Shown here in pieces: positions 1,007-45,946 of a stretch of 64,000 nt of DNA. The stretch lies in the IMG/VR virus record IMGVR_UViG_3300020220_000041. One strand, written 5' to 3'. The translations under genes and the position numbers were made by a program. Within the stretch, counting starts at the first letter, position 1. Every line of letters starts with the position of its first letter. Below the pieces are notes generated by a model. That model did no database searches. It was not told the origin of the DNA and saw nothing but the letters and a program-made list of their open reading frames with translations. This stretch comes from a virus.

Positions 1007-1010
1007 AAAC

Positions 1011-1084: not shown

Positions 1085-1089
1085 GTTGA

Positions 1090-1164: not shown

Positions 1165-1169
1165 GTGGA

Positions 1170-1713: not shown

Positions 1714-1760
1714 GCTATCTCCATGTCGCCTTCTACACTACAGCATTTTCAAAGAACTGA

Positions 1761-1836: not shown

Positions 1837-1860
1837 GAGGTATGGGGCCGCAGGTCGGGT

Positions 1861-5230: not shown

Positions 5231-5662
5231 TCAGGAGAGAGCGCAGCCGTCGTTCTCAGCGAGACGCCAACGGAGAGCGGACCCGTTGTAGACCCCGACG
5301 AGTTGGACGCTGTCGTTCACATCGTTGAGGGTGACGATCGTGTTGCCGGCCACGTTGAAGGCGTTCGCCACGGTCACGACGCAATCCCCACCGTCCGTCT
5401 GGAAGTAGAGGACGATGCGCTGGTTCACGAAGGTGGGAGCCGCCAGGGTTCGGGTCTGGGCACCCGAGGTCACGATGGCGCAAGTCCCCGACCGAGTGAC
5501 CGGGATGGCCCCCCCGTTCCCCGGGTCGGTGATGATCGTCCCGACCATCGCGAGACCCAACTCGGCGAGAGCCGCCTCAACGGTGGTTCCCGTGAGGTAG
5601 GCCGCGGTGTCCGCAACACCCACGAGAGCCGCACCGCTGTGGGTGTGGACGAGGCCATACAC
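5231..5662 (-). CDS. Tandem paralog B of 4713-5201 (start uncertain)
   Basis: The homologous region starts near HSGAALVGVADTAAYLTG. The upstream part of track ORF 5231-6022 is a P/S/R-rich read-through. A GTG at 5662 or a TTG at 5761 are candidate starts. Confidence 0.45.
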   Translation of the reverse strand: MYGLVHTHSGAALVGVADTAAYLTGTTVEAALAELGLAMVGTIITDPGNGGAIPVTRSGTCAIVTSGAQTRTLAAPTFVNQRIVLYFQTDGGDCVVTVANAFNVAGNTIVTLNDVNDSVQLVGVYNGSALRWRLAENDGCALS

Positions 5663-14461: not shown

Positions 14462-15538
14462 TCAGTCGATGCCGCACACCGTCTTGAGGATGCGGGCGGT
14501 CACGACGTAGGGGTCGACGTTCGCACAGGGGCGGCGGTCCTCGAGGTACCCGGAGCCCTTCTCCTTCACGGAGCGGGGGATGCGGATGCTCGCCCCCCGG
14601 TTCGCGATGCCCCAGCGGAACTCCTTGTACGAGCAGGTCTCGTGCTTCCCGGTGAGTCGAGCCTCGATGCCATCCCCGTAGCAGGCGATGTGCTCCGCGT
14701 GCTTCTCCCCGAGCTTCTCGCAGGCGGACTTGATGGCGTAGATGCCGAACTTCTGCTGGGACTCCCGATTGGCCTTCTCGTCCGTGCCGCCGAAAGAGGC
14801 GGGGTCAAGCCGCATCGCCGCCGTCGAGAAGTTGGTGTGGGCACCGGCACCGTTCCAGTCACCACGGGCGGGCTTCGGGTCGAGGGAGGCGTTGATCTCG
14901 TGGTCCTCTCCGAGCCGGTAGAGGAGCCAGCGGGCCAGCCACAGGTGGTCCGCCACCGTGAGCGGGTCCGAGGTCCCGATCTGGAACTCCCACTGGCCGG
15001 GCATGACCTCGGCGTTGGTCCCGTAGAGCAGGAGCCCGGCGTCGAGGCACGCCTTCGTGTGGGCCTCGATCAGAGGGCGACCAACCACCTCGTCGGCTCC
15101 GACGCCGCAGTAGTAGGGGCCCTGGGGAGCCGGGTAGCCGTTGTCCGGGAAGCCGAGCGGACGGGAGCCCTTGAACAGGGTGTACTCCTGCTCGATGCCG
15201 AACCAGGGCTCTTCGACAGCGGCACCCGCGTCGAGGACACGACGAAGCTCGGCCCGGGTGTTCGACTTGTGCGGGGTGACCTCGTCGCCGTTGAGGACTT
15301 CGCACAGGACGAGGTAGTTCGGGACGCCTCGAATCGGGTCCGTGACGACGCGAACGGGCTTCAGAGCGCAGTCAGAGTCGTGACCTTCGGCCTGGTACGT
15401 GGACGAGCCGTCGAAGCCCCACACGGGGAACTTGTCCGGGGTCGGCTCCCCCTCGATCTCCACAATCCGGGTCTTGGAACGTAGCTTCTGGGTGGGCGCG
15501 GCTCCGTCCATCCAGATGTACTCTGCCTGTGAACGCAT
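14462..15538 (-). CDS. glnII: Glutamine synthetase type II
   Basis: YIWMDG...LRSKTR, GIEQEYTLF, GPYYCGVGA, AEVMPGQWEFQIG, GAHTNFST and ASIRIPR. The length of 358 aa is typical of GSII. Confidence 0.8.
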   Translation of the reverse strand: MRSQAEYIWMDGAAPTQKLRSKTRIVEIEGEPTPDKFPVWGFDGSSTYQAEGHDSDCALKPVRVVTDPIRGVPNYLVLCEVLNGDEVTPHKSNTRAELRRVLDAGAAVEEPWFGIEQEYTLFKGSRPLGFPDNGYPAPQGPYYCGVGADEVVGRPLIEAHTKACLDAGLLLYGTNAEVMPGQWEFQIGTSDPLTVADHLWLARWLLYRLGEDHEINASLDPKPARGDWNGAGAHTNFSTAAMRLDPASFGGTDEKANRESQQKFGIYAIKSACEKLGEKHAEHIACYGDGIEARLTGKHETCSYKEFRWGIANRGASIRIPRSVKEKGSGYLEDRRPCANVDPYVVTARILKTVCGID

Positions 15539-25773: not shown

Positions 25774-28700
25774 ATGAAGTCGTCGACCAATCGAGTTGCC
25801 AGTCGGTGGATGCAAGCCGAGAACACGGACGAGCCGTCCGAGTCTGTCGGTGACGTGTCCCCCGGTGCCTTCGTGGACCTCATGGCGTTCTTCCAGGCGG
25901 TCGCGGCCTACCGTGCGCTGAAAGGAGACGAGGACCCCCAGACGCGGCGTGCGGCTCCCCTGGTTCGTCGTTTCCAGAGCGATCTGGTGGCGGGAGCGAA
26001 CCGGTACTTCGCACCCCTGACCGACGACACGGCCTTCGCCGGGTTGCGGAATGAGGTTCGGACGCTGACTCGGGGGACTCGTGGTCTCGACCACGCCTCC
26101 GAGCAAGCGGCGGCTCTCCGGAAGATTCTGTGGACCCTGCATCCGAAGCCGCAGGTGGTCCGCGAGGTGTTCTCGGACTCGCGTTCCTACACGGCGGTGA
26201 TGCGTCTGGCGGCCTTGGCCGCCACCGACTCTGCGGGAAGCCTGCTGAACAGCGTGGCGTCCCTCACCCCGGCCTCCCGGCTTCAACTGACCCGGAAGTG
26301 GATCCGTGACGCGGCGGAGGCGGCCAACGTGGCCCCCTCCAAGGTGGAGACGGTGCTGTCGGATGCGGAGAACGCTCGCCACCTGGGTGAGGATCTCCAC
26401 ACGGTCGAAGTCCAGTTGGCGACTGCGGACCCGGTGTCCCAGCGTGCCGCCGACCTCCAGGTCGAGAAGCAAGCCATCATCGACCAGATCGAGAAGGTGG
26501 TCGCGGACAGCCCCTCTCCGGCGGTGGTGTTGTCGGCGGCGGCCTCGGCTACGACACAGCCCCAGGACTACGCCACGGCCACGGCGAAGCGGTCCAGGCT
26601 CTCGCCAGACCAAGAGCGGGCGATGATGGCCCGTGGGAAGGCGATCATCGCGGCGGGTGCGGGTTCTGGAAAGACCGCAACCCTGGCCTCGAAGGTGGCC
26701 TACCACGTCAACGAACTTGGCGTCCCTCCTGGAGCGGTCATCGCGACCTCGTTCTCCCGGAAGTCGGCCGCTGAGCTTCGGCGGCGGATTGCCAAGTACG
26801 GGGCCGACATCCCGGACTCGGCGAGCACAGGGTTCGGCACCACTCACTCGGTCGCGGGCAAGCTCCTCCGGGAGTATGGCGGCGGTGGCCGGAATGGGAT
26901 GAAGAGCTACCAGCAGACCGACCTGGTTCGGTTGGCGATGGAGCAGGTCCAGATGGTCGGACCTGGTGTCGCGCCTCCGCCTCCCACGAGTCTGTTCGAC
27001 GTGTCCTCGGACGCCCCGGTCGGCATCAAGTTCCGCGATGCCATCCAGATGGCCTTCGATCGCCGCCACAAGCTCGACCCCTGGTCGAAGGGGTTCATCG
27101 AGTCGTTCTACAACCCGAGCGACCAGTGGTACGCCCGGACGATGCGGGCCACGGGGAACCTGACGAATCCGCATGGGCTGTCCGACAAGCAGCGTGAGAT
27201 CGTCAAGAAGGTCTTCGGGCGGTTGGGCATCAACTACTCGCCGACCACGGACCCCGGCCTGGCTCCCGCGCAGACCCAGCCCGCTCCTCGAGTGGCGGCC
27301 AAGGACAAGAACAAGGGGCTCCGCGAGAAGTACAAGTTCTTCTCCCAGCCCGCGAACGAGTGGTTCAACCTCGGCCTCGAACTGGTCGAGGAGGACGGTC
27401 AGGGCAACAAAAAGCCCATCCCGACCGGGTTCTTCAAGAACGCCATCTCCAAGTTCAAGGGTCGGGCGGTGTCGCCCTCCGAGGCTTGGGCGCTCTCCAA
27501 CGGGTCCCCCGAGGCGGCGGTGTACGCGGCCTATGAGTGGCTGAAGGGGTCGAAGGGCGAGACGGACTTCCAGGGTCTCGGCGACTTCGACGACGTGCTC
27601 CTCGACGTGTCGAAGATGCTCCTGTCGTCTCCTCGGGTGAGGCAGCAGGTCCAGTCGCGGTTCAAGGTGGCCCTCGTGGACGAGGCCCAGGATCTCAACC
27701 GGGCACAGCACCTCATGTTCGGCCTCATCACCGGGTTCGTGGACCCGGCGAAGGTGCCCAACATCGCCACCGCGAAAAAGATGGGCGAACTCGCCAAGGA
27801 TGACGGCTCGATGACGGCCGACACCTACTGCTTCATCGGCGACGACAAGCAGTGCGTGGAAGCCAATTCCTTGGTTGAGACTCAGAATGGGCCTCGACGT
27901 GTCGGAGACCTCGCTCCTGGCGATGAGGTACTTGCCTACCGCAATGGGAAGGTGCTTCTGCAGGCTGTACGCCATGTCGTCCCCTCGTCCTGGACATGGG
28001 GCTACAAAGTCACGATGGAGTCTGGGCAAACGCTGACGATGAGCCCCAACCACAAGCTCTGGGCAACCGAGCCTCAGACCGAAGATGGTCAGGTGGCCGT
28101 GTACCTGATGTATCGAAAGGACATGGGGTTCCGCGTTGGGATCACCAACAAGGGCAAGGTGGGCTCCGAGGAGGACTACCTGAACTCTTACGGGGGTCGA
28201 GTCTTCCTGGAGAAGGCCGAACGTCTGTGGGTTCTGGACATCTGCTCTAGCCGGGAGGAGGCTCTGCTGACAGAGACGGATCTCTCCCTGACCTACGGTA
28301 TCCCCACCACAGTGTTCAACGGGGAACACCGTGATCTCAATCAGGATCGGATCAACACCATCTTCCAGAAGCATGGGAAGAATGGAGGCCGCCTGTTGGA
28401 GGAGCGAAACCTCTCTTTTGATCTGCCCCATTGGATGAGCCAGAGCTACACAAAGCATGGCCGGGACCGGCACACTCTTCAGTTCTTGGCCCACAGCACG
28501 AAGGGCTCTCAGGTCGCGATGGAGTGGGTGGGTGACAAGTTCGACAAGGTGTTGCAGGATGTGAGCTTCAACATCACGGGTGAGCGCCGTCGGCTACGGC
28601 GGTGGTTCGGAAACTACCGTGAGGGCCTCGCTCATGCCGAGGAGGTGGCTCGTCGCACGGGTGCCAATCTGTCCTACCGGATGGCTACCCCCGAAGGAAC

Positions 28701-30306
28701 ATTGCGGGAAACGACCGCATCCGGGTTGTTCGTCGGAATGTCCATTCCCGTGCTCGATCAAGAGAACGAAACGATCGCTCTCGATCGAGTTGCCTGCATT
28801 GAACGGGTGGACGGCAGCTTCATCGATCTCGATGTGTTGGATGCCAGCAACTTCTTCGCCAACGGCATCCTGACTTCCAACAGCATCTACGAGTTCCGTG
28901 CGGCGGACCCCGAGGCGTTCATCGACATGAGCGAACTCGTGGCGGGTGGGGCCGGGTTCAAGACCGAGGTGCTGAAGACCAACTACCGGTCGGGGCAGTT
29001 GATCGTGGAGGCGGCCAACCGGCTCATCTCCTACAACACCAAGCAGATCCCGATGACCTGTGCCGCGAACCCACAGCGCGTGGACCGGGGTGGCATCGAG
29101 GCGGTCAACTTCGCTCCGGTCGAAGGTCGGGACATGAGTGCCCCGGCCGAGTGGCTCGCCACCTCCATCGCCGAGACGATGGAGGAAGGACGTGCGGGGG
29201 CCAAGGGCTACGACGCCTTCGGGGTGGGGCTGCGGTCCAACGCCGAGGCATACACCTACGGCATCGAGCTTCTGAAGAAGGGCATCCCGTTCCGCTCCAA
29301 GGCCAACTTCTTCGGCGACCCGACCACCAAGGCGCTGTTGCACTGGCTCACCATCGCCGATGAGGGTGTTGGTGGGAGTGTGGACCGGGTCAACGAGGCG
29401 GTACTGGGTGCCCGCAAGGCTCCAGCGTCGAAGCTCGGGGACAAGTTCGAGGAGATCCTGACCCAGCGGGCCACCGGGAACTACCTGACCTGGCTTCAGG
29501 ACAACTGGACCGAGGTGTACGGCTCTCGGGGCGACTGGGCGATGCTGGTTCGGTCCTTCGTGGACAACCTGCTGGCGGTCGCCGGGATGAAGGGCGGAGC
29601 CTCCGAACAGGTGCTCGAGACGATCCTCGACCTCACGGGGCACGACGGTCGGTCGGTCCGCCAGGTGCTCGTCGACCGGGTGTCCGAGGATGAGGAGGCC
29701 ATCGCCGAGCTTCGGGCCGAGTCCCCCACGGGCACAGTCACGGACGAGGAGATCGAGTCGATGGCGTTCGCGCCCATCGCTCCTCTGAAGGGTCTGTTGG
29801 GTGCTCGGGCGGACCTCAGCGAGGCGATGAAGTACGTCCGGCAGCTTCAGTCCGCGAACGAGAAGCTGGCTGCGGACGACGACCCCGACAACAAGAAGGC
29901 TCGTGAGCCCGCCGTCACGCTGGGCACGATGCACTCCTGGAAGGGCCTCGAAGTCGAGAACATGTACATCCCCTTCGTCGGCGGCCGGTTCCCCCGGTTC
30001 GATGCGGACGAGGAGGATCTGGCCTCCGAGCGTCGTCTCGCCTACGTGGCGGTGACTCGCGGTGAGAACCGGGTCGTGGTGATGAACATCCCGACGGTGC
30101 GTCGGACGAAGCAGGGAGCCGTCACCCAGACGAGCCAGTTCGTCGGCGAACTGTGCATCCCTCCGGCGGTGGACAGTCCATTCAGCGCGGGAGATGAGGA
30201 CGCCGAGCAGGAAGTGCTGCGGCTCGAGGAGCGGATGAACCGAACCGCGTCCTACCTCTCGGACGAAGCCATCTCGGCCTACCTCTCGGGCCAAAAGGGG
30301 CGGTGA
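25774..30306 (+). CDS. UvrD/PcrA-like superfamily 1 helicase with ~280-aa N-terminal extension, interrupted by an intein
   Basis: Motif I AIIAAGAGSGKTATL, motif II ALVDEAQDLN, and motif III split as GDDKQ|C...N|SIYEFRAAD. Total 1510 aa. Confidence 0.7.
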   Translation: MKSSTNRVASRWMQAENTDEPSESVGDVSPGAFVDLMAFFQAVAAYRALKGDEDPQTRRAAPLVRRFQSDLVAGANRYFAPLTDDTAFAGLRNEVRTLTRGTRGLDHASEQAAALRKILWTLHPKPQVVREVFSDSRSYTAVMRLAALAATDSAGSLLNSVASLTPASRLQLTRKWIRDAAEAANVAPSKVETVLSDAENARHLGEDLHTVEVQLATADPVSQRAADLQVEKQAIIDQIEKVVADSPSPAVVLSAAASATTQPQDYATATAKRSRLSPDQERAMMARGKAIIAAGAGSGKTATLASKVAYHVNELGVPPGAVIATSFSRKSAAELRRRIAKYGADIPDSASTGFGTTHSVAGKLLREYGGGGRNGMKSYQQTDLVRLAMEQVQMVGPGVAPPPPTSLFDVSSDAPVGIKFRDAIQMAFDRRHKLDPWSKGFIESFYNPSDQWYARTMRATGNLTNPHGLSDKQREIVKKVFGRLGINYSPTTDPGLAPAQTQPAPRVAAKDKNKGLREKYKFFSQPANEWFNLGLELVEEDGQGNKKPIPTGFFKNAISKFKGRAVSPSEAWALSNGSPEAAVYAAYEWLKGSKGETDFQGLGDFDDVLLDVSKMLLSSPRVRQQVQSRFKVALVDEAQDLNRAQHLMFGLITGFVDPAKVPNIATAKKMGELAKDDGSMTADTYCFIGDDKQCVEANSLVETQNGPRRVGDLAPGDEVLAYRNGKVLLQAVRHVVPSSWTWGYKVTMESGQTLTMSPNHKLWATEPQTEDGQVAVYLMYRKDMGFRVGITNKGKVGSEEDYLNSYGGRVFLEKAERLWVLDICSSREEALLTETDLSLTYGIPTTVFNGEHRDLNQDRINTIFQKHGKNGGRLLEERNLSFDLPHWMSQSYTKHGRDRHTLQFLAHSTKGSQVAMEWVGDKFDKVLQDVSFNITGERRRLRRWFGNYREGLAHAEEVARRTGANLSYRMATPEGTLRETTASGLFVGMSIPVLDQENETIALDRVACIERVDGSFIDLDVLDASNFFANGILTSNSIYEFRAADPEAFIDMSELVAGGAGFKTEVLKTNYRSGQLIVEAANRLISYNTKQIPMTCAANPQRVDRGGIEAVNFAPVEGRDMSAPAEWLATSIAETMEEGRAGAKGYDAFGVGLRSNAEAYTYGIELLKKGIPFRSKANFFGDPTTKALLHWLTIADEGVGGSVDRVNEAVLGARKAPASKLGDKFEEILTQRATGNYLTWLQDNWTEVYGSRGDWAMLVRSFVDNLLAVAGMKGGASEQVLETILDLTGHDGRSVRQVLVDRVSEDEEAIAELRAESPTGTVTDEEIESMAFAPIAPLKGLLGARADLSEAMKYVRQLQSANEKLAADDDPDNKKAREPAVTLGTMHSWKGLEVENMYIPFVGGRFPRFDADEEDLASERRLAYVAVTRGENRVVVMNIPTVRRTKQGAVTQTSQFVGELCIPPAVDSPFSAGDEDAEQEVLRLEERMNRTASYLSDEAISAYLSGQKGR
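27853..28881 (+). other. Intein (343 aa: Cys1 ... terminal Asn, +1 Ser) inside UvrD motif III
   Basis: The host motif GDDxQSIYxFRGA is broken between Q and S. The insert starts CVEANS and ends ANGILTSN. Its size allows an endonuclease domain. Confidence 0.6.
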
Positions 30307-31130: not shown

Positions 31131-34100
31131 TGACGACCTCCGCTTCACGAAATCGCATGGTTCGGCGGATCGCTGACACCTACCTGGGTTCCATCCGGGT
31201 CGCTGAGGAGGAGGCTCCATTCGAGGACGACTCGGCCGACGAGCCGCTCCCTACTCGACCCATGTTCTCGTCGAGTGCCCGCCAGAAGTTGTTCCGAGCC
31301 TTTGGTCCCAGAGGCATCGCGTTCTTCGATCTCTACGACGCCCTCCGCCAGGTCGCCGTAGGGGGTCTGCCTCCGGAGAGTGGCTTCGTCCATGAGTTCC
31401 GGGCGTTGTCTCGCATCGTGGCTCGGTTCCTCACAACGGAGCCGACCAAGGGCAAGCTCGCGGATATCGCCTCCAGGCTACGCCCGTTGTTCGACCGCAT
31501 CGACAGCGGAAGGGCCAGTCGCGCCGTGTTCCGCACAGCGGCAGGTCTGTACGCGACTCTCGTACAGGAGGTGGCTTCCGACCGCGACGTCCACCTCGCA
31601 CCGATGTCCGGCGGTGCTCCGGGCTGGGTGGCGTTCAAGCTCATGTCCGCCCGCGAGGAGAAACTCGACGAGTTGATGCGGAACGACCCCGAGGCGTTCA
31701 ACGTCATCCAGCGGTCGAGGTCGATCGTCCGACAGATCGATCGGTCCATCGAGAAGGAAATCTCCGATGGCGGCCTCATCCCCAGCAAGAAGGAGATCCT
31801 CGGCCGTCCTGTGCAGACGGGGAAGGATCCTGTATCGGGCGACGAGTACGTGTTCGACACCGACGGAGAGATGCTCTCCATCCCCTCCTTCATCGAGAAG
31901 CGTCGCAAGGCTCTCGAATCCCAGGAAGCGGCCCGCCGAGTATTCCCCCGCAACGTGGCGGACTTGAGGTCGCTGAACGACGAGGAACTGGACGCCTTCA
32001 CGGTGGGGAGCATGGAGTACGTCGCTCTCACCGACGACAAGGCCAAGTCAGGTGGGCTCACGCGCATCTACCCGGCGAAGCGCACCGTGGACGGCGACCT
32101 GGTGGTTGTCGATGGTCGGTTCAAGGGCATCTACATCGACGACCTCGTGAACCGTGCGGGTCGGATGATCGAAGGTGTGGCCTTCGACGTCGATCCGAAG
32201 AACGGCGTGCCTGTCCCGATGGAGACACGAAACCCGGATGGCACCCCCAACGTTCGCTCGAGCCGCGAGCCTTACGTCACGGTCGGCACCAAGGGGTCGC
32301 TCTACCTTCGCATCCCAAGCGGACACGGGTTCACGGCGGCCCGCAACGCCCTGACGGCTCTTTCCAAGAGCATCCCGTCCCTTCAATACGTGGAGGGGTC
32401 GCGGAAGTCGGCCTTCACGTTTGAGCCGAAGGACTTCGCCACGGTTCGCGAGGCTCTGGGTGGGCTTGCGCTCTCCACGGCAGCCACGAAGCTGCTCCGG
32501 GACTTCTTCTCGGGCCTCGCCAAGCACGAACTCGCCATCTCCAGCGAGAACCTGCAACTCTTCGACACCGACCGTATCGGCGGCTTCAAGCCGGGGCGTC
32601 GCCTCTACAACAAGCAGAAGGAGGCGATGGCCTGGCTTGAGTCCCGTGGGCACTCGGGCGTCGTCGCCCTTGACACCGGCCTGGGCAAGACCGCGACCAC
32701 CATCGCCTCGATGCAGAAGATCATCCGGGATGGGCTCATCGAGGAGAACCAGCAGTTCCTCTACGTGTGCCCCAAGGCGTTGAAGGGGAATCTCCCGAAG
32801 GAAATCGTCGCGTTCGTCGAGGATCCCGAGACGCTCCTCTCGCGCGTGAAGGTGATGACCTACCAGGAGTTCACTCGAGCCGTCAAAGACGACCCGAACT
32901 TCGCGGACCGCTACGCGGCTGTGTTCTTCGACGAGGCCCAGGCGCTCAAGAACTCGAAGTCCGGTCCAGGTCGGGCTGCGATGGCCCTCCGACACCCGAA
33001 GAAGGTGCTGTTCACGGCGAGCCCCATGGAGAAGTCTCCCATGGAGGTCTTCAACCTCGTCGCCATCACCAACAACATCGACCTGAACACGCGCGAGGGT
33101 GCAGCACAGGCTCGAGCCTTCCGTCGGCGGTTCGCCGAAGAGGTGGGTGGGAAGATCATCGGGATCAAGAACGACCCCGTCACGGCTCGGGATTTCCGCG
33201 TCTGGGTGAAGCGGAACCTCTACTTCGCCGACAAGCGGGACGTGGAGGAGGTCGTTCTCCCGCAACTCCGGTCCCAGACCGTGGCCATCACGATGGACCC
33301 CGAAGTCGAGGCTCGCTACCGCGAGGTGGCCAAGAGCGTCGAAGGGGTGCTCGCTGGGATGGTGGCGAAGTACCGCGACCGTGACCCATCCGCGAAGGAT
33401 CCAGCCATCGAAGCGGCTCGGGTGCGTCTGCGGAAGGAGTTCGGAATCCTGTTTGAACTGGCCAATGCCCCGCAGAAGGCCGTCCCAGGGGCCTCGAACC
33501 CGAAGATGACCCACCTCGTTGACATCCTCGACGAGCGGGTGGGCGCGAATAGACGGACCCTGGTATTCACGGACAGTCCGGACCTTGCGGGCGAAACCGC
33601 AGAGATCCTCTCGACCCGATTCCCCGGGCATAGCGTGGCCGAGTGTCTCGCGCAGTCCATCCGGGAATGGAAGGGCGGCCGGGTGGTCCAGGTCTACAGG
33701 GAGGCCAAGTACACGGATGGCAAGCGGACCTGGCCCAAGAGCGACTGGAAGGTCTACGTCCTCGACCGGATCGTGAGCCCCGATCCCGACTACATCGCCT
33801 GTGTCCTCACATCGACATACGCCGTGGGTCAGAACCTCCAGCAGTTCGACACGGTCGTCCACCTCGACCGCGATGCGTGGAACAACGAGGTGATGAAGCA
33901 GCGCACGGCCCGAGCGTGGCGGAGCGGGCAGCAGCACTCAGTCGAGGAGTACGTGCTCGACGCCGTGTACTCTGACCCGGCCAATGACCGGGACGAGACG
34001 CTCGACCAGATCGTCGCCCACCTCCAGCGGCTCGAGTCCGAGTTGTTCGACCAGGTCATCATCGAGAGCCAGTCGGAAGCCCTCGGGAAGGAGTGGTTCG

Positions 34101-34222
34101 GGATGAAGCGACTCCACTCCTCCTTCGTCGAGTTGAGTCGGCGAATGCTCGAACTCTCGATGTCCCCTTACGCGCAACGTCTTGGGCTCCATGAGGTTCA
34201 GGAAATGGCCCAGAAAGCGTAG
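31130..34222 (+). CDS. SNF2/RAD54-family helicase with long N-terminal region
   Basis: ALDTGLGKTATTIA (motif I), FFDEAQALKN (DEAH box) and YAVGQNLQQFDTVVHLDRDAWNNEVMKQRTARAWRSGQ (motif VI). Confidence 0.7.
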   Translation: MTTSASRNRMVRRIADTYLGSIRVAEEEAPFEDDSADEPLPTRPMFSSSARQKLFRAFGPRGIAFFDLYDALRQVAVGGLPPESGFVHEFRALSRIVARFLTTEPTKGKLADIASRLRPLFDRIDSGRASRAVFRTAAGLYATLVQEVASDRDVHLAPMSGGAPGWVAFKLMSAREEKLDELMRNDPEAFNVIQRSRSIVRQIDRSIEKEISDGGLIPSKKEILGRPVQTGKDPVSGDEYVFDTDGEMLSIPSFIEKRRKALESQEAARRVFPRNVADLRSLNDEELDAFTVGSMEYVALTDDKAKSGGLTRIYPAKRTVDGDLVVVDGRFKGIYIDDLVNRAGRMIEGVAFDVDPKNGVPVPMETRNPDGTPNVRSSREPYVTVGTKGSLYLRIPSGHGFTAARNALTALSKSIPSLQYVEGSRKSAFTFEPKDFATVREALGGLALSTAATKLLRDFFSGLAKHELAISSENLQLFDTDRIGGFKPGRRLYNKQKEAMAWLESRGHSGVVALDTGLGKTATTIASMQKIIRDGLIEENQQFLYVCPKALKGNLPKEIVAFVEDPETLLSRVKVMTYQEFTRAVKDDPNFADRYAAVFFDEAQALKNSKSGPGRAAMALRHPKKVLFTASPMEKSPMEVFNLVAITNNIDLNTREGAAQARAFRRRFAEEVGGKIIGIKNDPVTARDFRVWVKRNLYFADKRDVEEVVLPQLRSQTVAITMDPEVEARYREVAKSVEGVLAGMVAKYRDRDPSAKDPAIEAARVRLRKEFGILFELANAPQKAVPGASNPKMTHLVDILDERVGANRRTLVFTDSPDLAGETAEILSTRFPGHSVAECLAQSIREWKGGRVVQVYREAKYTDGKRTWPKSDWKVYVLDRIVSPDPDYIACVLTSTYAVGQNLQQFDTVVHLDRDAWNNEVMKQRTARAWRSGQQHSVEEYVLDAVYSDPANDRDETLDQIVAHLQRLESELFDQVIIESQSEALGKEWFGMKRLHSSFVELSRRMLELSMSPYAQRLGLHEVQEMAQKA

Positions 34223-34241
34223 TATAGGTGAGGAGTAGACC

Positions 34242-34538
34242 ATGGACACTGCATCACCTGAAGGACCGAAGACACTCACCGAGTGGCGAACCTACGTGGC
34301 TGGGCTTGGCGGCCCAGACCTCATGTCGAAAGCGAGGGCCGCGAACAGCATCGCGTTCGTCCGTGCCCTGGAAGCAGACGGGCTGTCACCCGATGACATC
34401 ACCGACGTGCTCCTGGCTTTCGCCCAACGGCTCGTCGAAGACGGACAAGAGCCCCCGACGAGGCACGCGGGCTTCTACATCGACTACCAGCGGTTGCTCA
34501 ATCCCCGCCGGATCGTCGCCGAGATCGTGCCGGACTAA
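34242..34538 (+). CDS. Hypothetical protein
   Basis: 98-aa ORF. Confidence 0.45.
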   Translation: MDTASPEGPKTLTEWRTYVAGLGGPDLMSKARAANSIAFVRALEADGLSPDDITDVLLAFAQRLVEDGQEPPTRHAGFYIDYQRLLNPRRIVAEIVPD

Positions 34539-34855
34539 CGAGCCACGAAGGGCCGCTTGATGCCCTTCGTGAACCACTCCGAGTCCGTGGGCCACGCCTC
34601 GATGCCGAGGGCTTCGCGAAGCATCACGGCAACGCACGAGGCGTCGATCTCGTTGAGGCCCATCTTCTCCATCACGTAGGAGAAGTGGAGCCCGCCGTCG
34701 AGGGACACGACCATCGCCCGGAGCTTGTCCGAGAAGGGTCCGACCACGATGAACCCTCCCCCACTGGAACCGAAGATGGGGGTCTCGACCCTGGTGACCA
34801 GGAGTTCGTAGCGGGTTCCGTTCCCGGGTTCCCAGAGCAGACGAGTGGATTCCAT
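34535..34855 (-). CDS. Hypothetical protein
   Basis: 106 aa. Preceded by the promoter-like motif. Confidence 0.5.
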   Translation of the reverse strand: MESTRLLWEPGNGTRYELLVTRVETPIFGSSGGGFIVVGPFSDKLRAMVVSLDGGLHFSYVMEKMGLNEIDASCVAVMLREALGIEAWPTDSEWFTKGIKRPFVAR

Positions 34856-34871
34856 GTGGGGGTCCTCCTGT

Positions 34872-34906
34872 TCTGACTACGCCGACGCCAGGGGATTCTG
34901 AACCTC
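34872..34906 (-). promoter_or_regulatory. Conserved promoter-like motif: AGGTTCAGA-N14-GCGTAGTCAGAACAGGAGG
   Basis: Full copy. Confidence 0.5.
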
Positions 34907-35695
34907 TGCGTCGATGACGGCCTGGTAGATTTCGGCCCCCATACACCCGCTGTACTTGGACATCCAGTCCCGAGCCTTCTCGGCGGTGATGCCGACCTTG
35001 GCGGCGTAGGCGAGGCAGGCTTCCTTGGCGATGGCCGGAGGGACCAGCCAGTAGGTCCGCCAGTCGTCGTGGCTGTTGGCGTCTTCACGGTAGATGGTGA
35101 CGCCGTTGTAGGTGAACTCCGAGAGGGTCAGCTTGTACGAGCCCGAGTTGTCGCGAGCGACCTCCCGCACCCGAACGAGCTTCGACGGGTCGGCCATTTC
35201 GCAGGACACCGACACCATCCCATCAGCAACGGCTCGGGCGGCCTTGTAGGCAGCGGCCTCGGCCTCATCGGCAGCCTTCTTCTCGGCGGCCTTCACCTTG
35301 GCTTCCTCGGCGGCCTTCTGGCGAGCCACCTTGGCCTCTTCCTTGTTGGCCTTGCATCGGGCGTGGTCGAGGCAGTAGACGTGCCACCCGCCGTGGTCGT
35401 GGTGCTTCATGCACCCGGAGTCCTCGACGCAGTAGACCAGTTCGCCCTGGCCCACCTTGAGGTAGTCCCCGCACGAGTCGCAGTACCCGGCCTTCTGGTT
35501 CGTCTTCTGGCCCTTGCCCCGGTTGGCGGCACCGGTGCCGCCCGCCACGAGCCCGACGAGCGGCTGCTGGGCCGTGGGGCAGGAGGCGTGCTCGGTGACA
35601 CCGCCGCCCCACATGATCTCCGTGCCCGCCGCGAACTTGGAGCCGCACTTGCGGCAGGTACCCGGGTAACGCGCCGTCATCTTCTTCATAGACAT
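34877..35695 (-). CDS. Hypothetical Cys-rich protein with K/A/E-rich central region
   Basis: The start is probably the ATG at 35695 (MSMKKMTARYPGTCRKCG), with a GGGAGGG RBS. Confidence 0.5.
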   Translation of the reverse strand: MSMKKMTARYPGTCRKCGSKFAAGTEIMWGGGVTEHASCPTAQQPLVGLVAGGTGAANRGKGQKTNQKAGYCDSCGDYLKVGQGELVYCVEDSGCMKHHDHGGWHVYCLDHARCKANKEEAKVARQKAAEEAKVKAAEKKAADEAEAAAYKAARAVADGMVSVSCEMADPSKLVRVREVARDNSGSYKLTLSEFTYNGVTIYREDANSHDDWRTYWLVPPAIAKEACLAYAAKVGITAEKARDWMSKYSGCMGAEIYQAVIDAEVQNPLASA

Positions 35696-35717
35696 TGCTG
35701 TGCCCTCCCACTGGGTG

Positions 35718-35754
35718 TTCTGACTACGCAAGTGGGTGGCAGGGCTGAACCTTC
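35718..35754 (-). promoter_or_regulatory. Conserved promoter-like motif: AGGTTCAGC-N14-GCGTAGTCAGAAC
   Basis: Full copy. Confidence 0.5.
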
Positions 35755-35781
35755 AGTTCAAACGATCTTGAAAGCCCAGGT

Positions 35782-35997
35782 TCAAGGCTTCTTCGATTTG
35801 AACAGATCCCGAATGCGAGGCCCTTCGGGTGTACGGATGGGGATGTTCTGGAGGTTGGGACCCCGCCCATACAGAGCCCCGAAGTTGATCGCTCGAGCGG
35901 CTTCACGCTGCTCGGGGGTCACCTGGTCCTCGGGCACGCCGAACATCTCGGCAGCGGTCTTGCGGTGGATGTCCTGGCTCATGTTCTCGTCTCCCAC
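35782..35997 (-). pseudogene. Scrambled DNA polymerase I (family A) fragment
   Basis: [36 protein letters not shown] (motif B / O-helix region) is followed directly by [18 protein letters not shown], which normally lies upstream of motif A. The ORF is only 71 aa. Confidence 0.55.
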
Positions 35998-36500
35998 AGG
36001 GCGGATAACCTACGCAGTTCCGCTGAAATCAGCCGATCTTGGCTTGCGTACTGTGCCTCGAACCCGCTCGCCTTTTCGTCGTCTTCCCGCCACCAGCGAG
36101 GCGCTGGCGAGAACCCGTGCTCATCCGCAATCCACTGCTCCTGACGTTCGGTCGGAGTGGGCCACTCCGTTGCAAGGAGGATGGGTTCCGAGCGTTGGTT
36201 GTCGAGGTTGAGCCAGGGGACAGACTTCAGGATGCCCTCGCCTTTGAAGGGTCGGCGTTTCCCGACTCGGAGGGCCATCCACTTGAGGACCGCATGTTCC
36301 CAGTCGTGGGGGCTGTTGAACCCGAGTTGGAGGGGGCCGTGTCCGTACTTGATGCCCCCTTGCTGAACGAGCCCCTGGAAACGGGGCCGAAGTCCCGTCG
36401 CCAGCACTTCGGACCCATCCCTGAGATGCTTCTCGGCGAAGGCCACCATCTCCCCGAGAGCCGCTTCAGAGCGGCAGGTGAAGGAGAAGCTGTAGCCCAT
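35979..36500 (-). CDS. Hypothetical protein
   Basis: The real part begins [26 protein letters not shown]. Its ATG overlaps the asnS stop as TGATG. Confidence 0.5.
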
Positions 36501-37840
36501 CAGATGCTCCCCGGAGTCCTGGGGTACGGAAGCACGTCGCGGATGTTCGGGACGCCCAGGAGCCACATCAGGATGCGTTCGAGGCCGAGCCCGAACCCAC
36601 CGTGAGGCACCGTGCCGTACCGGCGGAGGTCGATGTAGTGCCGGTAGTCGGACGGGTCGAGCTTGCACCGCTCGATCTGTGCGAGGAGCTTGTCGAGGCG
36701 CTCTTCACGCTGGGAGCCCCCGATGATCTCGCCCACACCGGGCACGAGCAGGTCGAAGCACGCGACCGTCTGACGACCAGGGACACATCCGTCGTTGAGC
36801 CGCATGTAGAACGACTTGTGCTGCGCGGGGTAGTCGGTGACGAACACCGGCCCCTGAAACACGACCTCGGCGATGTACCGCTCGTGCTCCGTCTGGAGGG
36901 GGTGCTCCCACCCAACGGGGTGCTCGAACTTCCGGCCGCTCTCCTCGAGGATTTCGAGGGCGTGCGCGTAGGTGATCCGAGCGAACGGGTCGAAGGAGAG
37001 GGCCACCTTGGCGGACTCCTGGATGGCTCCGGTCACCGAGAGAGCATGGGCACAGGCACGCACCAGTCCCTCGGCCAGGTCCATCACGTCGCCCACGTCC
37101 GCGAAGGCCACCTCGGGCTCGATCATCCAGAACTCGGCCGCATGGCGGGCCGTGTTGCTGTTCTCGGCCCGGAAGGTCGGCCCGAACGTGTAGACCTTCG
37201 AGAAGGCACAGGCGAACGGCTCCACGTCCAACTGGCCGGAGACAGTCAGGTACGCGGGCTGTCCGAAGAACGGCTCATCGTCCGTCTCCTTCTCGTGGAC
37301 GACCCCGAACATCTCACCCGCCCCCTCGCAGTCGGAGGCCGTGAGGATGGGCGTGTGTACCCACATGAACCCCCGCGTGCGGAAGAACTCGTGGATGGCA
37401 GTGGACACGGTGTTCCGAGCGATGAAAACGCGCTGGAACTCCTGCGTGCGGACGCGAAGATGGGGGATCGTCCGGTAGAACTCCGGAGACGCCTCCTTCT
37501 TCTGAACCGGGAAGTCCGAGGCGTCGCAGTCGCCCACGACGGTCACGCCCTCGAGGGTGGCCTTGATCTCGTGGGGCTGCTCGGGGCCTGGAGAGGCCGC
37601 GAACACGCCCGTCACGTCGAGGGCCGCCCCCACACCCAGGCGAGCCCGTAGGGCGTCGTCAGCGGGCGGGGAGAGGACGATCTGGACGGTCTTCTCGGTC
37701 GAGCCGTCGTACAGGTGGATGAACGTGACCTTCTTGGCGAAGCGAGACGTGCGGATCCAGCCCTGGACGCGGACGTGGGCACCTTCGGGAGTGATCCCCG
37801 TGAGCAGGCGGCGCACGGAGATGGGGTCAACGGGAACCAT
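36500..37840 (-). CDS. asnS: Asparaginyl-tRNA synthetase (class II)
   Basis: FRAENSNTARHAAEFWMIEPE, GGSQREER and YGTVPHGGFGLGLERILMWLLGVPNIRDVLPYPR. The N-terminal OB domain starts VRVQGWIRTSR. Confidence 0.8.
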   Translation of the reverse strand: MVPVDPISVRRLLTGITPEGAHVRVQGWIRTSRFAKKVTFIHLYDGSTEKTVQIVLSPPADDALRARLGVGAALDVTGVFAASPGPEQPHEIKATLEGVTVVGDCDASDFPVQKKEASPEFYRTIPHLRVRTQEFQRVFIARNTVSTAIHEFFRTRGFMWVHTPILTASDCEGAGEMFGVVHEKETDDEPFFGQPAYLTVSGQLDVEPFACAFSKVYTFGPTFRAENSNTARHAAEFWMIEPEVAFADVGDVMDLAEGLVRACAHALSVTGAIQESAKVALSFDPFARITYAHALEILEESGRKFEHPVGWEHPLQTEHERYIAEVVFQGPVFVTDYPAQHKSFYMRLNDGCVPGRQTVACFDLLVPGVGEIIGGSQREERLDKLLAQIERCKLDPSDYRHYIDLRRYGTVPHGGFGLGLERILMWLLGVPNIRDVLPYPRTPGSI

Positions 37841-37858
37841 GAAACACCTCAACGCCCA

Positions 37859-38095
37859 CTACGCGGAAGCGGCCATCCGGATGAAGGGACCCTGGGTGTC
37901 GAAGGTGATGCGGGTGCCCACCTGGGCCGCCCAGCCGTCACCCGCAGGGGGGACAGGGACACCCGTGATGGTGCCGAACCCACGACCCTTCCAGTTCGGG
38001 TCCATCCCCTCGAACCGCACGGGCACCCACACGGGCACGTCCGCCAGCGAGTTCCGCCAGTCCAGTTCGATCGCACAGCCAGGGGTCAGGTCCAT
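37859..38095 (-). CDS. Hypothetical protein
   Basis: MDLTPGCAIELDWRNS... with a GAGGAG RBS. Confidence 0.45.
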   Translation of the reverse strand: MDLTPGCAIELDWRNSLADVPVWVPVRFEGMDPNWKGRGFGTITGVPVPPAGDGWAAQVGTRITFDTQGPFIRMAASA

Positions 38096-38110
38096 GGTGA
38101 ATCTCCTCGC

Positions 38111-38146
38111 TTTGTTATACGCGGCCGGAGAGTCAAGCTGAACCTC
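38111..38146 (-). promoter_or_regulatory. Conserved promoter-like motif: AGGTTCAGC-N14-GCGTATAACAAAGCGAGGAG
   Basis: Full copy. Confidence 0.45.
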
Positions 38147-38585
38147 ACTTGTAGTCGATCTTGGGGATCTCTCCGCCGTCAGAAGGCTCAAAACGACGCT
38201 TGAGCTTCTCATAGAGGAAACGTGCGTAGTTGTCCGAAAGGCTCTTGAAGCGACCTCGAAGTTTCACGGCCATGTCCACGCGGTTGTCCACCTCGTTTCC
38301 ACGAAGGAGATGCTCGGGGTTGGCACAGGAGGGGTTGTCGCAGAGGTGGAGGATGGTGTCCGCTGGAGTGAGCTTCACCCCGTAAACCACCTCATAGACG
38401 ACGCGATGGACATAGAAAGTGCCTTCGGCGAGTCCGATCACGCCTTGCCCGCCCCTAGATTTTGACTTTGCGCCTTTCCAAACCCAACAGTCCCCTTCGG
38501 GCACATCCCAATTCAGTCCGAGCCAGAGCTTCACCTCCAACGGCACCCCGCGTTCCTTGTTCGGCAGCAGTTCCTTGTCCGGCAT
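38145..38585 (-). CDS. HNH endonuclease
   Basis: HLCDNPSCANPEHLLRGNEVDN (HNH_3). Confidence 0.65.
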   Translation of the reverse strand: MPDKELLPNKERGVPLEVKLWLGLNWDVPEGDCWVWKGAKSKSRGGQGVIGLAEGTFYVHRVVYEVVYGVKLTPADTILHLCDNPSCANPEHLLRGNEVDNRVDMAVKLRGRFKSLSDNYARFLYEKLKRRFEPSDGGEIPKIDYK

Positions 38586-38728
38586 GAACCCTCCCCACAA
38601 GAAACTTTATCAATCTGATAACGAACCTTGTGGTGTGTTACCCCTGCTCCCGCGAAAACGGGCGTTTTCCCGTTCTCGGACGCAGGCACGGAAGATGCTT
38701 TGAGGGGAGGCAAGGAGGTCTACAGACC

Positions 38729-38974
38729 ATGATCGTTCGGTTCGAGTGCGGGTGTGTGGGGCTGGTGGGCGTCCAGGGCGTTGAGGAGGGTCGGCACCTC
38801 CTCCTGCAAGCCTGCGACGCGGACGACAACTCCCTCGGCCTGTTCCCACGGGACATGAGCGGGAAAGCCCACGAGCCCGTCTCAGAGGAGAAGGCTCGAG
38901 GGCTCATAGAGGAAATGTCCCGGCTGATGATGGAGGGGTACAGGCTCCGGACCATCCGGAGCCTGCTCCAGTGA
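38729..38974 (+). CDS. Hypothetical small protein
   Basis: ATG with an AGGAGG RBS. 81 aa. Confidence 0.45.
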   Translation: MIVRFECGCVGLVGVQGVEEGRHLLLQACDADDNSLGLFPRDMSGKAHEPVSEEKARGLIEEMSRLMMEGYRLRTIRSLLQ

Positions 38975-38977
38975 TCC

Positions 38978-39472
38978 TCATTTTGGTTTGCGGGGTTTGT
39001 ACACGCTGTCGTCATCTAAGAAGGTGGGAACCATCTCGGGAAACTGATGGGGACACTTCCCATAGAGTCCCTTTGAAATGTTGCAGTTGTGACAAAGCAC
39101 CTGGAAAACCGGTGGGTAGTTGTTGGAGATGATCCACGTCATGAGTGGGCCCCCGTGCCCCACTTCACGGCGATGTTCGGAGCCGCCCCCATCAACATGG
39201 TCCAGTGCGAGGAAAGGCAACCTGTCCTCCCCACAACATGTACACACACCCCCGTACTTCTGAATCACCGCAGCACGTCGCCGTCGATGCGACATGGCAC
39301 TTCGCCGTCTGTTGACGTTGGGGTCGACGGTTCGACGAATTCGACACGCCTCACAAGACTTCTTTCCGGGTGTAACTGGGGCTTTCCAGCAGTTCGAGCA
39401 GAGACCTTTACTTTGGGCCTCCGCCCGTTTCTGTTTGCCGTAAGTGCTGTTGTACTGGGTTCGGTCTGGCAT
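38978..39472 (-). CDS. HNH endonuclease
   Basis: FLALDHVDGGGSEHR...LCHNCN. The internal ATG at 39472 is the likely start. Confidence 0.6.
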   Translation of the reverse strand: MPDRTQYNSTYGKQKRAEAQSKGLCSNCWKAPVTPGKKSCEACRIRRTVDPNVNRRRSAMSHRRRRAAVIQKYGGVCTCCGEDRLPFLALDHVDGGGSEHRREVGHGGPLMTWIISNNYPPVFQVLCHNCNISKGLYGKCPHQFPEMVPTFLDDDSVYKPRKPK

Positions 39473-39518
39473 ATGCGTTGAATCCCCATTCAACGCATAG
39501 CACAGCCTCGGGTTGGGT

Positions 39519-40418
39519 TCAAGCGGCTTCGGCGTTCTGCTCCTCTTCTTCGTCTTCCGCACCCGCGTTCAGGATGAGGTCAACTGCCTGCTGTGCCGCC
39601 CGAGCGGCCCCAAACACTGCATACTTGTCCCCTCGAAGCACCTTCAACCAGTGGGCCAGGTAGTTCGGGTGTTGCAGATCACCCTCAACTCCGAGATGAG
39701 CACACAGGAAGGCCGCGCCGATTTCGGCCACCAGTTCCTCCATCGCGTAGGCATCCGAGCCGAACCTGTTCTTGAGGTCTCGGTTCAACCTGCCTTCGGC
39801 TCCAGTCCAGTGGAGCGTTTCGTGCGCCCGGGTCGCCAAGTAGTTCTCGATCGTGTGGAACTGCTCGACGTTGGGGAGGCGAATGCAGTCCTCGGCCGGG
39901 GAATAGCAGGCGTGATCACCACCGTGACGGACATCAGCCCCCACAGCTTCGAGTACCGTCATCGCTTCCGTGTGGGTGCCCGCCAGGTGGATCGAAGGGG
40001 CGACTTCCCCCACATCAGCAGGCAGACCTTCTACTTGTTCCCGGTTAAAGACAGTAAAGACGCGGAGGAGCGGGATCTTCTTGCCCGTCTCGACGCCCTC
40101 GACCTTTTCGGGGATGAACTGCCAGTAGACGATCTTCGTGCCCTTCTCGCCCTTGCGGACGTTCGCACCGAGATCCTTGGCCTGGTTGAAGGTGTACCAG
40201 CGGGCGTCGCTGTAGCCCGCGATGGCGAGCAACCAGATGTTGAGGCCGTTGTAGTGCCGACCCGACTTGCCGTTGCGGGGCATGCCGTTGATGCCCATGG
40301 ACTTCCAGGGCTTCGACCACTCCCCGGGGCCGGCTTCGAGGGCCGCGACGATGCGGTCGGTCACGTCCTGGTACCAGTCGTTCTTGGGGGCGGTGGTGGT
40401 CTTGGTGCTGCGGGCCAT
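39519..40418 (-). CDS. ardC: ArdC-like antirestriction protein
   Basis: N-terminal ssDNA-binding region (KPW...NGxxYxGxN...) plus a C-terminal zincin HExxH (ATRAHETLHWTGA). Confidence 0.7.
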   Translation of the reverse strand: MARSTKTTTAPKNDWYQDVTDRIVAALEAGPGEWSKPWKSMGINGMPRNGKSGRHYNGLNIWLLAIAGYSDARWYTFNQAKDLGANVRKGEKGTKIVYWQFIPEKVEGVETGKKIPLLRVFTVFNREQVEGLPADVGEVAPSIHLAGTHTEAMTVLEAVGADVRHGGDHACYSPAEDCIRLPNVEQFHTIENYLATRAHETLHWTGAEGRLNRDLKNRFGSDAYAMEELVAEIGAAFLCAHLGVEGDLQHPNYLAHWLKVLRGDKYAVFGAARAAQQAVDLILNAGAEDEEEEQNAEAA

Positions 40419-43806: not shown

Positions 43807-43842
43807 AGGTTCAGGAACCCCCCTCTCTTGCGTAGTAGAGGT
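43807..43842 (+). promoter_or_regulatory. Conserved promoter-like motif: AGGTTCAGG-N14-GCGTAGTAGAGG
   Basis: Plus-strand copy, 15 nt before an AGGAGG RBS and the ATG at 43857. Confidence 0.5.
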
Positions 43843-45181: not shown

Positions 45182-45946
45182 ATGAAGAACGACTCCCTGG
45201 GCGACCGCATGAAGCGGTACGAGTTGGCTGGACGACAGCTTCTTGTGCCTCGAACCCCGGTCATCGCGCGCATCGACGGTAGGGCCTTCCACACCTTCAC
45301 GAAGGGGTGTGCTCGTCCCTACGACGAGGATCTGCACGCCTGTATGTGGGAAGCAGCCAAGGCGGTTGCGGCCGACATCGCGGGTTGCCGGCTGGCCTAC
45401 GTCCAGTCGGACGAGATCAGCCTGCTCCTGGTGGACTACGAGTCGAACGCCTCCCAGGCGCACTTCGACTACGAGGTGCCGAAGCTGACCTCGACGGCGG
45501 CGGCCACGGCGTCCGTGACGTTCCTCGTCGAGTTCCTCAACCGGTTCCCGGACCGTCGGGACCGGCTCATGTCGAAGCGGGGGCTCCCGACGTTCGACGC
45601 GAGGTTCTACAACGTTCCTCGAGAGGATGTGGACAACTACTTCCTGTGGCGACAGCGGGACGCGGAGCGGAACTCGCTGACGATGCAGGCCCAGGCGCAC
45701 TACTCCCACAAGGAACTTCACGGGAAGTCTCGTGCGGAGAGGCACGACCTCTTGCACGCCAAGGGCATCAACTGGAACGACCTCCCCACTCCTCGGAAGC
45801 GGGGGGTGTGCGTGGTCCGCGAGACCTATCAGAAGGGGGAGGGCCTGCGCTCTCGGTGGACTGTGGATGAGGACATCCCGATCTTCTCGACCCCCGAAGG
45901 CCGTCAGTACCTCGAACGCTTCGTGAATCCCCCTGCTTCTTCGTGA
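45182..45946 (+). CDS. Thg1-like protein (tRNA-His guanylyltransferase family, 3'-5' nucleotide addition)
   Basis: VIARIDGRAFHTFTKGCARPYDEDL and AYVQSDEISLLL match the Thg1 catalytic carboxylate motifs. Confidence 0.65.
   Translation: MKNDSLGDRMKRYELAGRQLLVPRTPVIARIDGRAFHTFTKGCARPYDEDLHACMWEAAKAVAADIAGCRLAYVQSDEISLLLVDYESNASQAHFDYEVPKLTSTAAATASVTFLVEFLNRFPDRRDRLMSKRGLPTFDARFYNVPREDVDNYFLWRQRDAERNSLTMQAQAHYSHKELHGKSRAERHDLLHAKGINWNDLPTPRKRGVCVVRETYQKGEGLRSRWTVDEDIPIFSTPEGRQYLERFVNPPASS

Follow-up and report, generated by a model that had tools for sequence, protein, structure and literature searches.

In a 64,000-nucleotide stretch of viral DNA from the IMG/VR record IMGVR_UViG_3300020220_000041, hereafter called the window, a small minus-strand gene was found to encode a miniprotein in which two segments of DNA polymerase I (Pol I) are joined in the reverse of their usual order. 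The gene is intact, 66 codons long and not a decaying fragment, and purifying selection acts on both of its Pol I-derived modules as strongly as on the adjacent AsnRS gene. As a permuted, selected and non-catalytic Pol I miniprotein it appears to be previously undescribed; the literature searched contained no account of Pol I miniproteins that are permuted or made up of motifs only, and the 2023 reclassification of PolA left out sequences shorter than 350 amino acids (aa). The reading that we favour, with moderate confidence, is that the protein is a domesticated, non-catalytic mimic of the substrate-binding surface of host Pol I, which would act as a competitor or as a decoy.

A preliminary description of this DNA had reported a 71-aa open reading frame (ORF) with its own ribosome-binding site, and such an ORF, beginning with GTG (35782..35997, minus strand), was indeed confirmed in the ORF list, together with a GGGAG element in front of the gene. 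The true start, however, is most likely the ATG at 35982. The homologues, without exception, begin with M-(S/G)-(Q)-D-[IV]-H, matching this ATG, which shares the tetranucleotide ATGA with the TGA stop of the upstream ORF, and for both reasons the product is taken to be the 66-aa protein MSQDIHRK...KSKKP. An identical 66-aa protein starting at the same ATG (P0001) is present in a public protein collection. The GC contents at codon positions one to three (0.66/0.44/0.76) are those of a typical coding frame in a window with 63% GC, and the gene is predicted to be co-transcribed and translationally coupled with the upstream gene. The peptide GDEN, considered as a further Pol I remnant, lies upstream of the ATG, is not conserved and falls at a position that is the C-terminus of AsnRS in relatives; it was therefore rejected.

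The N-terminal part of the product (N module) follows the pattern DIH ... motif B (R-x3-K-x3-F-x3-YG), so that motif B of the O-helix is present, with Arg at the position equivalent to Lys758, and it is joined to the segment that in Pol I precedes motif A (C module). This permuted arrangement, already proposed in the preliminary description, was confirmed. Pfam PF00476 matched the miniprotein with an E value of 2.6e-19 and 69.9 bits (cut-off 34.3) in two stretches, residues 2–41 aligning with profile positions 183–222 (DIH to motif B) and the C-terminal segment with positions ∼115–149, as read directly for the relatives P0016 and P0009. Likewise, the NCBIfam models of cellular Pol I placed the N module at ∼691–729 and the C module at ∼625–657 of 889 positions. 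Using Taq and Escherichia coli Pol I as tblastn queries, the DIH–motif B part was detected with E values of 5e-11 to 7e-11 and the PNLQNIP part with 3e-5 to 3e-4, and phmmer against the PDB gave two domains lying on Klenow residues 407–467 and 342–369, the second corresponding to the C module. The C module matched ∼58 residues upstream of the N module in each of 84 full-length PolA sequences, with raw BLOSUM62 scores of 60–96 as against 11–29 within the 60 residues that follow motif B. A colinear reading, in which E. coli Pol I aligns with residues 3–61 in one piece, was rejected on the same scores, this alignment being weak in the part after motif B. Judged from these alignments, the order of the two segments is truly permuted, the N module standing directly before the PNLQNIPxRTxEGxxIR segment. 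The best models for both modules were cellular Pol I equivalogs of NCBIfam and not phage replicases, and the modules thus resemble host-type (cellular) Pol I more than phage-type PolA.

A lineage in which this order is native to a full polymerase was looked for, and none was found in an exhaustive profile search covering 1.84 billion representative proteins or among the 84 PolA. All listed ordinary polymerases (at least 500 aa) matched the family profile in two stretches, and among the few single-stretch matches to the full profile that were inspected there were only small proteins (P0016, P0025, P0035 and P0037). The family was accordingly defined as small proteins that start with M-x-(x)-D-[IV]-H, carry the N before the C module and match the full-length profile in a single stretch; it comprises the window product, P0002 to P0008, P0158 and the four small proteins just named. 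P0002 to P0005 are close relatives (64–66 aa, 83–88% identical) with the same architecture, and the basic tail KSKKP recurs in the closest relatives as K/R-rich ends. In P0006, P0007 and P0158 (120–122 aa) the modules are parted by a linker of ∼55 aa containing CxxC...H...H...C, and in the P0008 cluster (81–90 aa) the C module is degraded. The four distant members (P0016, 164 aa; P0025, 118 aa; P0035, 161 aa; P0037, 143 aa) start with M-x-x-D-[IV]-H and continue through the N module and a linker into TGRxxxxxPxLQNIPxRTxEGxxIRxAF, P0035 running on into a motif-A-like DFDYAAIERRLVWL. The linker is optional in the family and often rich in Cys and His.

So far, the family has been seen only on metagenomic contigs with large-phage features; the contigs of the relatives reach 166 kb (with P0002), 288 kb (the IMG/VR viral genome IMGVR_UViG_3300028177_000001), 350 kb and 648 kb (with P0007) and carry RF-1, IF1-like, Thg1 and tRNA-binding genes. 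A wider profile made from all members yielded no further permuted members, only ordinary colinear Pol I fragments, and since this last search added none the permuted family must be rare. When 185,579 genomes representing bacterial and archaeal species were scanned by pattern, no permuted gene was detected, only ordinary Pol I. A cultured relative was not found either, as megablast of positions 34000–39000 and tblastn of the SNF2-like protein of the window in 50,697 phage records gave no match. An apparent tblastn extension of Pol I similarity into the 68-aa gene that follows the miniprotein gene in L001 (L numbers denote DNA contexts) crosses a stop codon with almost no identities and was regarded as spurious.

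The selective regime was estimated by the Nei–Gojobori method from the window gene and six relatives, and the resulting ratios of non-synonymous to synonymous substitution (dN/dS) rest on these seven short sequences. Pairwise dN/dS over the whole gene was 0.09–0.33 at dS values of 0.4–1.6. For the N module it was 0.08–0.35 in all eight pairs, and for the C module 0.06–0.20 in seven of eight, the remaining pair (window and P0007) giving 0.52 (Fisher p 0.27); the other 15 of the 16 per-module comparisons had Fisher p values between 7e-7 and 0.03. The corresponding values were 0.10–0.20 for AsnRS and 0.12–0.40 for other neighbours. Start and frame are kept across 13 family proteins, and start, frame and length down to ∼55% identity. 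Neither a dN/dS near 1 nor a start or frame lost in relatives, as expected of a pseudogene, was observed, and the low dN/dS can therefore be reconciled neither with decay of a fragment nor with a role at the DNA level alone.

The conservation of the locus points in the same direction. It had been suggested that a polA gene was fractured here or elsewhere in the genome, and a look for polA at this place in relatives had been proposed. What the relatives have there is not polA but the same small permuted gene. In L001, L018 and L020 it directly follows the AsnRS gene, stop and start overlapping or abutting, and in the window and L019 a gene of ∼172 aa is interposed between the two. Flanking genes vary among the relatives and the miniprotein gene stays.

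Motif A, which holds a catalytic Asp (DYSQIELR; PF00476 positions ∼150–182), was found neither in the miniprotein nor in the window, and motif C, the HDE motif that holds the other catalytic Asp, had no match anywhere in the 64 kb. Because both are absent, members of the family cannot polymerise. Compared with bacterial Pol I (family A; PF00476, TIGR00593/NF004397), to which its two segments are homologous and whose deoxynucleoside triphosphate (dNTP)- and primer-contacting residues it keeps, the miniprotein has 66 aa instead of ∼900 and a reversed segment order, and is devoid of motif A (Asp705), motif C (Asp882/Glu883), the thumb and the exonuclease domains. With an active family A enzyme it thus has homology and motif B in common, but not motif A, motif C or the order of motifs.

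In the AlphaFold2 (AF2) model, helices were predicted at residues 5–14 and 23–37 with a predicted local distance difference test (pLDDT) score of ∼80, and the predicted hairpin superimposed on helices N and O in the structures of Klenow, Klentaq and Bst with a root-mean-square deviation of 0.7–1.2 Å over 35–39 residues. Foldseek returned only Pol I hairpin matches. The C module was modelled with low confidence in short and long forms alike; it is probably disordered when alone, and the models suggest a flexible segment that would become ordered only on a partner. The Cys/His-rich linker of the long form was predicted as a small alpha/beta unit (pLDDT ∼70–78). Among 13 members, the positions of the N module that face the cleft in Pol I are strongly kept: D4 (13/13), H6 (12/13), R26 (11/13), a basic residue at position 30 (11/13), F34 (12/13), Y38 and G39 (13/13 each). 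The same applies to Q45 (11/13), N46 (12/13), P48 (12/13) and R50 (10/13) of the C module. Klenow numbering, derived from residue counts in the E. coli sequence and consistent with the familiar Klenow residues, gives D4 = D732, H6 = H734, R26 = R754, R/K30 = K758, F34 = F762 and Y38-G39 = Y766-G767 for the N module, and P42-N43 = P674-N675, Q45-N46 = Q677-N678, P48 = P680 and R50 = R682 for the C module. In Klenow, H734, R754, K758, F762 and Y766 contact the triphosphate and base of the dNTP, and N675, Q677, N678 and R682 contact the primer strand.

In a free hairpin with a flexible tail, the cleft-facing side chains are exposed and would have no structural job, and their conservation would thus reflect selection either to bind the ligands of Pol I or to resemble Pol I. 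The miniprotein would then present the Pol I substrate-binding surface without catalysis. As a competitor it would vie with the host enzyme for primer termini or nucleotides, and as a decoy it would draw away a factor that docks on the substrate surface of Pol I; such a role would fit host take-over or counter-defence. If true, this would point to a new kind of interaction, exploited by phages, in which the active-site surface of Pol I takes part. The Pol I motifs are among the best-studied sequences, and the miniprotein consists only of those that contact dNTP and primer.

Several observations weigh against a mimic of the Pol I surface, the mechanism of which we infer from residue conservation. 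AF2 never sets the C module on the hairpin, and the models give no sign of a rebuilt Pol I-like pocket. Leu occupies the R754-equivalent position in P0003 and P0005, and Gln the K758-equivalent position in P0007 and P0158; the C module is degenerate in the distant members P0035 and P0008, and the basic charge is not family-wide, the isoelectric point ranging from 4.7 to 10. Furthermore, the family is rare and the estimates of selection come from few and short sequences, PADLOC gave no match for the miniprotein, its relatives or its neighbours, and a resident polA may contribute by gene conversion or be complemented by the miniprotein.

Modules of the same kind also occur on their own in other phages. 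Pectobacterium phage CX5 (T7-like) carries an N-only ORF of 60 aa (QFP93595.1; MN270887.1, 34080–34262; L103, 2947–3129), whose homologue in phage PPWS2 lies ∼2 kb from the left end of the genome and is annotated as ‘DNA polymerase’. An N-only ORF of 55 aa, MSYDIHRK... (Aci011_143; MH800198.1, 93259–93426; L102, 3016–3183), is present in Acinetobacter phage vB_AbaM_B09_Aci01-1 (Saclayvirus; Aci01-1 for short) and was matched in 15 Acinetobacter phage records. In both CX5 and Aci01-1 these ORFs are annotated as hypothetical, sit among small unannotated genes and correspond to phrog_38792, labelled ‘unknown function’. Like the miniprotein they are small DIH...motif B hairpins, some of them starting with M-S-x-D-I-H; unlike it they have no PNLQNIP module, are unpermuted and come from Proteobacteria phages with much smaller genomes. 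The host-type C module was detected alone or embedded in unrelated proteins in four other phage contexts, namely at the C-terminus of P0009, in a 66-aa ORF beside a TnpB-like gene (L009/L010), in a short ORF of L011 and in the middle of a 210-aa protein of L012. In L011 and L012 the ORF with the C module lies beside a divergent phage-type PolA whose own motif is a different one (TGR..GRLIQxQNxPR), which likewise speaks for a resemblance of the modules to the host-type enzyme. The sequence IRTPEG shared by such ORFs, a variant present in 13% of bacterial Pol I, was rejected as a sign of common descent, since the ORFs had been found with the pattern QNIPIRTP, an ascertainment bias. When cultured phages were searched by tblastn for ORFs consisting of the C module alone, the matches were confined to apparent full polymerases and short unannotated records, and a ‘hypothetical protein’ of Staphylococcus phage MR003, considered as a split gene, proved to be a full-length polymerase.

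These occurrences would accommodate a broader and more tentative proposal, which we consider possible but doubtful: N and C modules may be portable peptides that mimic the active-site surface of host Pol I and that phages use on their own, joined in permuted order or as parts of larger proteins. They would neutralise a host defence or repair factor that recognises Pol I or primer termini, or block the access of Pol I to phage DNA, and would in that case represent a new class of phage ‘enzyme-surface mimic’ take-over proteins. The N-only relatives in cultured Acinetobacter and Pectobacterium phages make the mimic idea directly testable. For annotation, ORFs of this type are labelled ‘DNA polymerase’ or ‘pseudogene’ and are neither.

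Purifying selection shows that the miniprotein has a function but not which, and the hairpin could have been exapted as a scaffold in a role unrelated to its Pol I ancestry, for instance in regulation, in assembly or together with the upstream 173-aa protein. We regard this as unlikely, even though the wide variation of linkers and tails between subfamilies and the degenerate C modules of P0008 and P0035 would suit it, because the residues that are kept are those contacting the substrate in Pol I and lie on the solvent face of the hairpin and in the tail, where nothing would keep them from changing in a generic scaffold. A functional partner may nevertheless be seen in the 173-aa protein. A neighbour of 173/192 aa recurs beside the miniprotein gene in three contexts with differing gene orders, homologues being found at 556–1074 of L019 and at 10603–11181 of L007, two genes downstream of P0006; it is absent from most contexts, however, and only 26–57% identical between the three. 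The 173-aa protein had no family match in Pfam, PHROGs, PADLOC, NCBIfam or PDB profiles.

It is rather improbable that the miniprotein is a trans-acting piece of a split and rearranged phage polymerase to which it supplies the O-helix and the primer-contact loop. Such an origin has precedents, as PolA is split in some phages and a split between the exonuclease and polymerase parts is reported for T7-like phages (PMC10201439); in addition, PHROG PolA pieces begin at DIH (phrog_6982) or at PNLQNIP (phrog_12116), and the genome carries inteins and free-standing HNH genes. In the split family A polymerases of T7-like cyanophages the polymerase sequence is likewise distributed over separate small genes, but the pieces are colinear, adjacent and together make up a complete enzyme (PMC10201439), in contrast to the miniprotein, which is permuted. 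No complementary polymerase fragment and no other PolA-like sequence was found in the window or in the ±10 kb around the permuted gene of the related contexts that were retrieved. The N-only ORFs of the Pectobacterium phages lie near the left end of the genome, far from any DNA polymerase gene, and the closest sequence models of the modules are not those of phage replicases. The two-residue YG-RG-P junction would also be hard to fit into the native geometry. An origin as an exon fragment left by an intein or intron found no counterpart in the sequence either, no Hint domain being detected in the miniprotein or its linkered relatives.

Since the pattern of conservation mirrors that of Pol I itself, the constraint might be borrowed from an intact polA of this genome through recurrent gene conversion, the miniprotein having no function of its own. 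This is very improbable, as the ATG immediately before DIH, the junction, the linkers and the tail cannot come from a colinear polA, the IMG/VR scan gave a single matching locus in the 288-kb relative, and third codon positions differ freely between relatives. We find hardly credible the view of the preliminary description, according to which the gene is a decaying polA relic of duplication and deletion or of recombination whose frame is open by chance. A permuted junction is the expected product of a deletion within a tandem duplication, and the region is rich in mobile elements; against this stand the dN/dS of 0.06–0.35 in 15 of 16 module pairs at saturating dS, as low as in AsnRS, the conservation of the start, frame and length in at least 13 proteins, the occurrence of the same gene at the same locus in relatives and the lack of any other polA remnant in the window or in the flanks of the contexts fetched. 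Least credible of all is a DNA- or RNA-level element with an incidental ORF, be it a homing-site decoy, a recombination patch for host polA or an antisense or regulatory RNA: homing endonucleases and inteins do target conserved polymerase motifs and both are present in the window, but the protein is conserved although substitutions at synonymous sites approach saturation, Rfam at E ≤ 1 gave no intron or other family in 35000–36800 (only two chance-level matches), and no terminator or sigma-70-like promoter was found around the gene.

With regard to how the miniprotein could have arisen, the deletion within a tandem duplication proposed in the preliminary description is plausible in kind, but the event would be ancient and is not the only candidate. 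An internal tandem duplication of the TGR-to-motif-B segment of Pol I (∼100 codons) may have been trimmed at both ends; this is plausible because in P0025 the ‘YG’ of motif B is joined directly to ‘VTGR...PALQNIP’, precisely the junction that such a duplication would create, and the linkered forms would on this model represent insertions. Circular permutants that arose by duplication and trimming are known, for example from the motif orders of DNA methyltransferases, and the P0025 junction is what this process predicts. Classical permutants, however, keep the whole fold and the activity, whereas the miniprotein keeps two motifs and loses catalysis. A fusion of separately captured N-only and C-only modules is equally viable, since stand-alone versions of both exist. 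Either product would subsequently have been domesticated, and in the clade of the window the linker would have been deleted, leaving YG-RG-PNLQ. We infer that the permutation predates the divergence of the family and is thus uninformative on polA at this locus. The reciprocal junction, a search for which had been proposed in the preliminary description, was sought by tblastn, and neither it nor other polA similarity was found in the 64-kb window or in the 10 kb to either side of the gene in the related contexts retrieved.

The coordinates of the features at the locus and of the C-module sites elsewhere are compiled in Table 1.

Table 1. Features of the miniprotein locus (window coordinates) and sites of the C module in other contexts.
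Feature	Position	Strand	Remarks
Miniprotein gene	35782..35982	(-)	66 codons plus TGA stop; homologues, ATGA overlap
Shine-Dalgarno-like GGGAG	35991-35995	(-)	8 nt before ATG 35982, inside the 3' end of the upstream gene
N module, residues 3-39	35866..35976	(-)	Pol I helices N and O, Klenow D732-G767
C module, residues 40-61	35800..35865	(-)	Pol I segment just before motif A, Klenow ∼P674-F693
Basic tail KSKKP	35785..35799	(-)	From alignments; not Pol I-derived
173-aa gene	35979..36500	(-)	Stop overlaps miniprotein start; possible partner
AsnRS-like gene	36500..37852	(-)	Pfam tRNA-synt_2, E 3.4e-70
Promoter-like motif GGTTCAG-N15-GCGTAGT	35751-35723	(-)	After miniprotein stop; serves next gene (272 aa, 34877-35695)
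C-module sites	L011 ∼8100-8240; L012 2746-3378; L010 9974-10174 (same ORF in L009); L016 404-760		

The promoter-like motif GGTTCAG-N15-GCGTAGT occurs at 18 sites of the window with the exact 15-nt spacer, 17 of them outside the miniprotein locus (e.g. 17679–17651(-), 23565–23537(-), 34195–34223(+) and 43808–43836(+)), and at the 17 sites with a readable start it ends ∼10–25 nt before the ribosome-binding site and start. The motif does not resemble the sigma-70 consensus, and its recognition probably depends on a phage- or host-specific factor. The nearest minus-strand copy upstream of the miniprotein gene is at 40470–40442, and the gene is probably transcribed from farther upstream. A degenerate copy of the motif had been noted at 36005–36040, but this sequence belongs to the coding region for the conserved C-terminus of the upstream 173-aa protein. 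It contains TTTCAG and GCGTAGG only 7 nt apart, as against the invariant 15 nt, and codes for LI..EL.RLSALWE.R, which is conserved in the homologues of that gene; its interpretation as a decayed promoter was therefore abandoned.

The window looks like a part of a very large phage genome, although no viral hallmark gene was found in it. It encodes a UvrD-like and an SNF2-like helicase, an ArdC-like protein and a deoxynucleoside monophosphate kinase, as well as six tRNA genes at 935–1935 (-), comprising four tRNA-Thr (TGT, GGT, CGT, CGT), one tRNA-Lys (TTT) and one tRNA-Gln (TTG). Cargo unusual for a phage includes a glutamine synthetase (14462–15538 (-)), a Thg1-like 3'-5' nucleotidyltransferase (45182–45946 (+)), a flotillin/SPFH protein (58956–61031 (+)) and an ADP-ribosylglycohydrolase (62127–63164 (+)). 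Two tandem paralogues (4719–5018 and 5237–5536) are 80% identical over 300 nt, and the genes at 12093, 23622 and 25021 have the common N-terminus MSDAALR..LIRLAHA.PE...

The UvrD-like gene (25774–30306 (+)) is interrupted by a 342-aa intein at residues 694–1035, inserted at GDDKQ|(A/S)IYEFR and backed by weak Hint and Intein_splicing matches; it is the only intein found in the window and lies 6 kb from the miniprotein gene. The L001 orthologue (1166 aa, 87–92% identical) is devoid of it, indicating a presence/absence polymorphism. Between the ArdC-like and AsnRS genes lie two free-standing HNH genes (38145–38600 (-) and 38978–39562 (-)), whereas the matching interval of L001 contains only one gene, of 81 aa.

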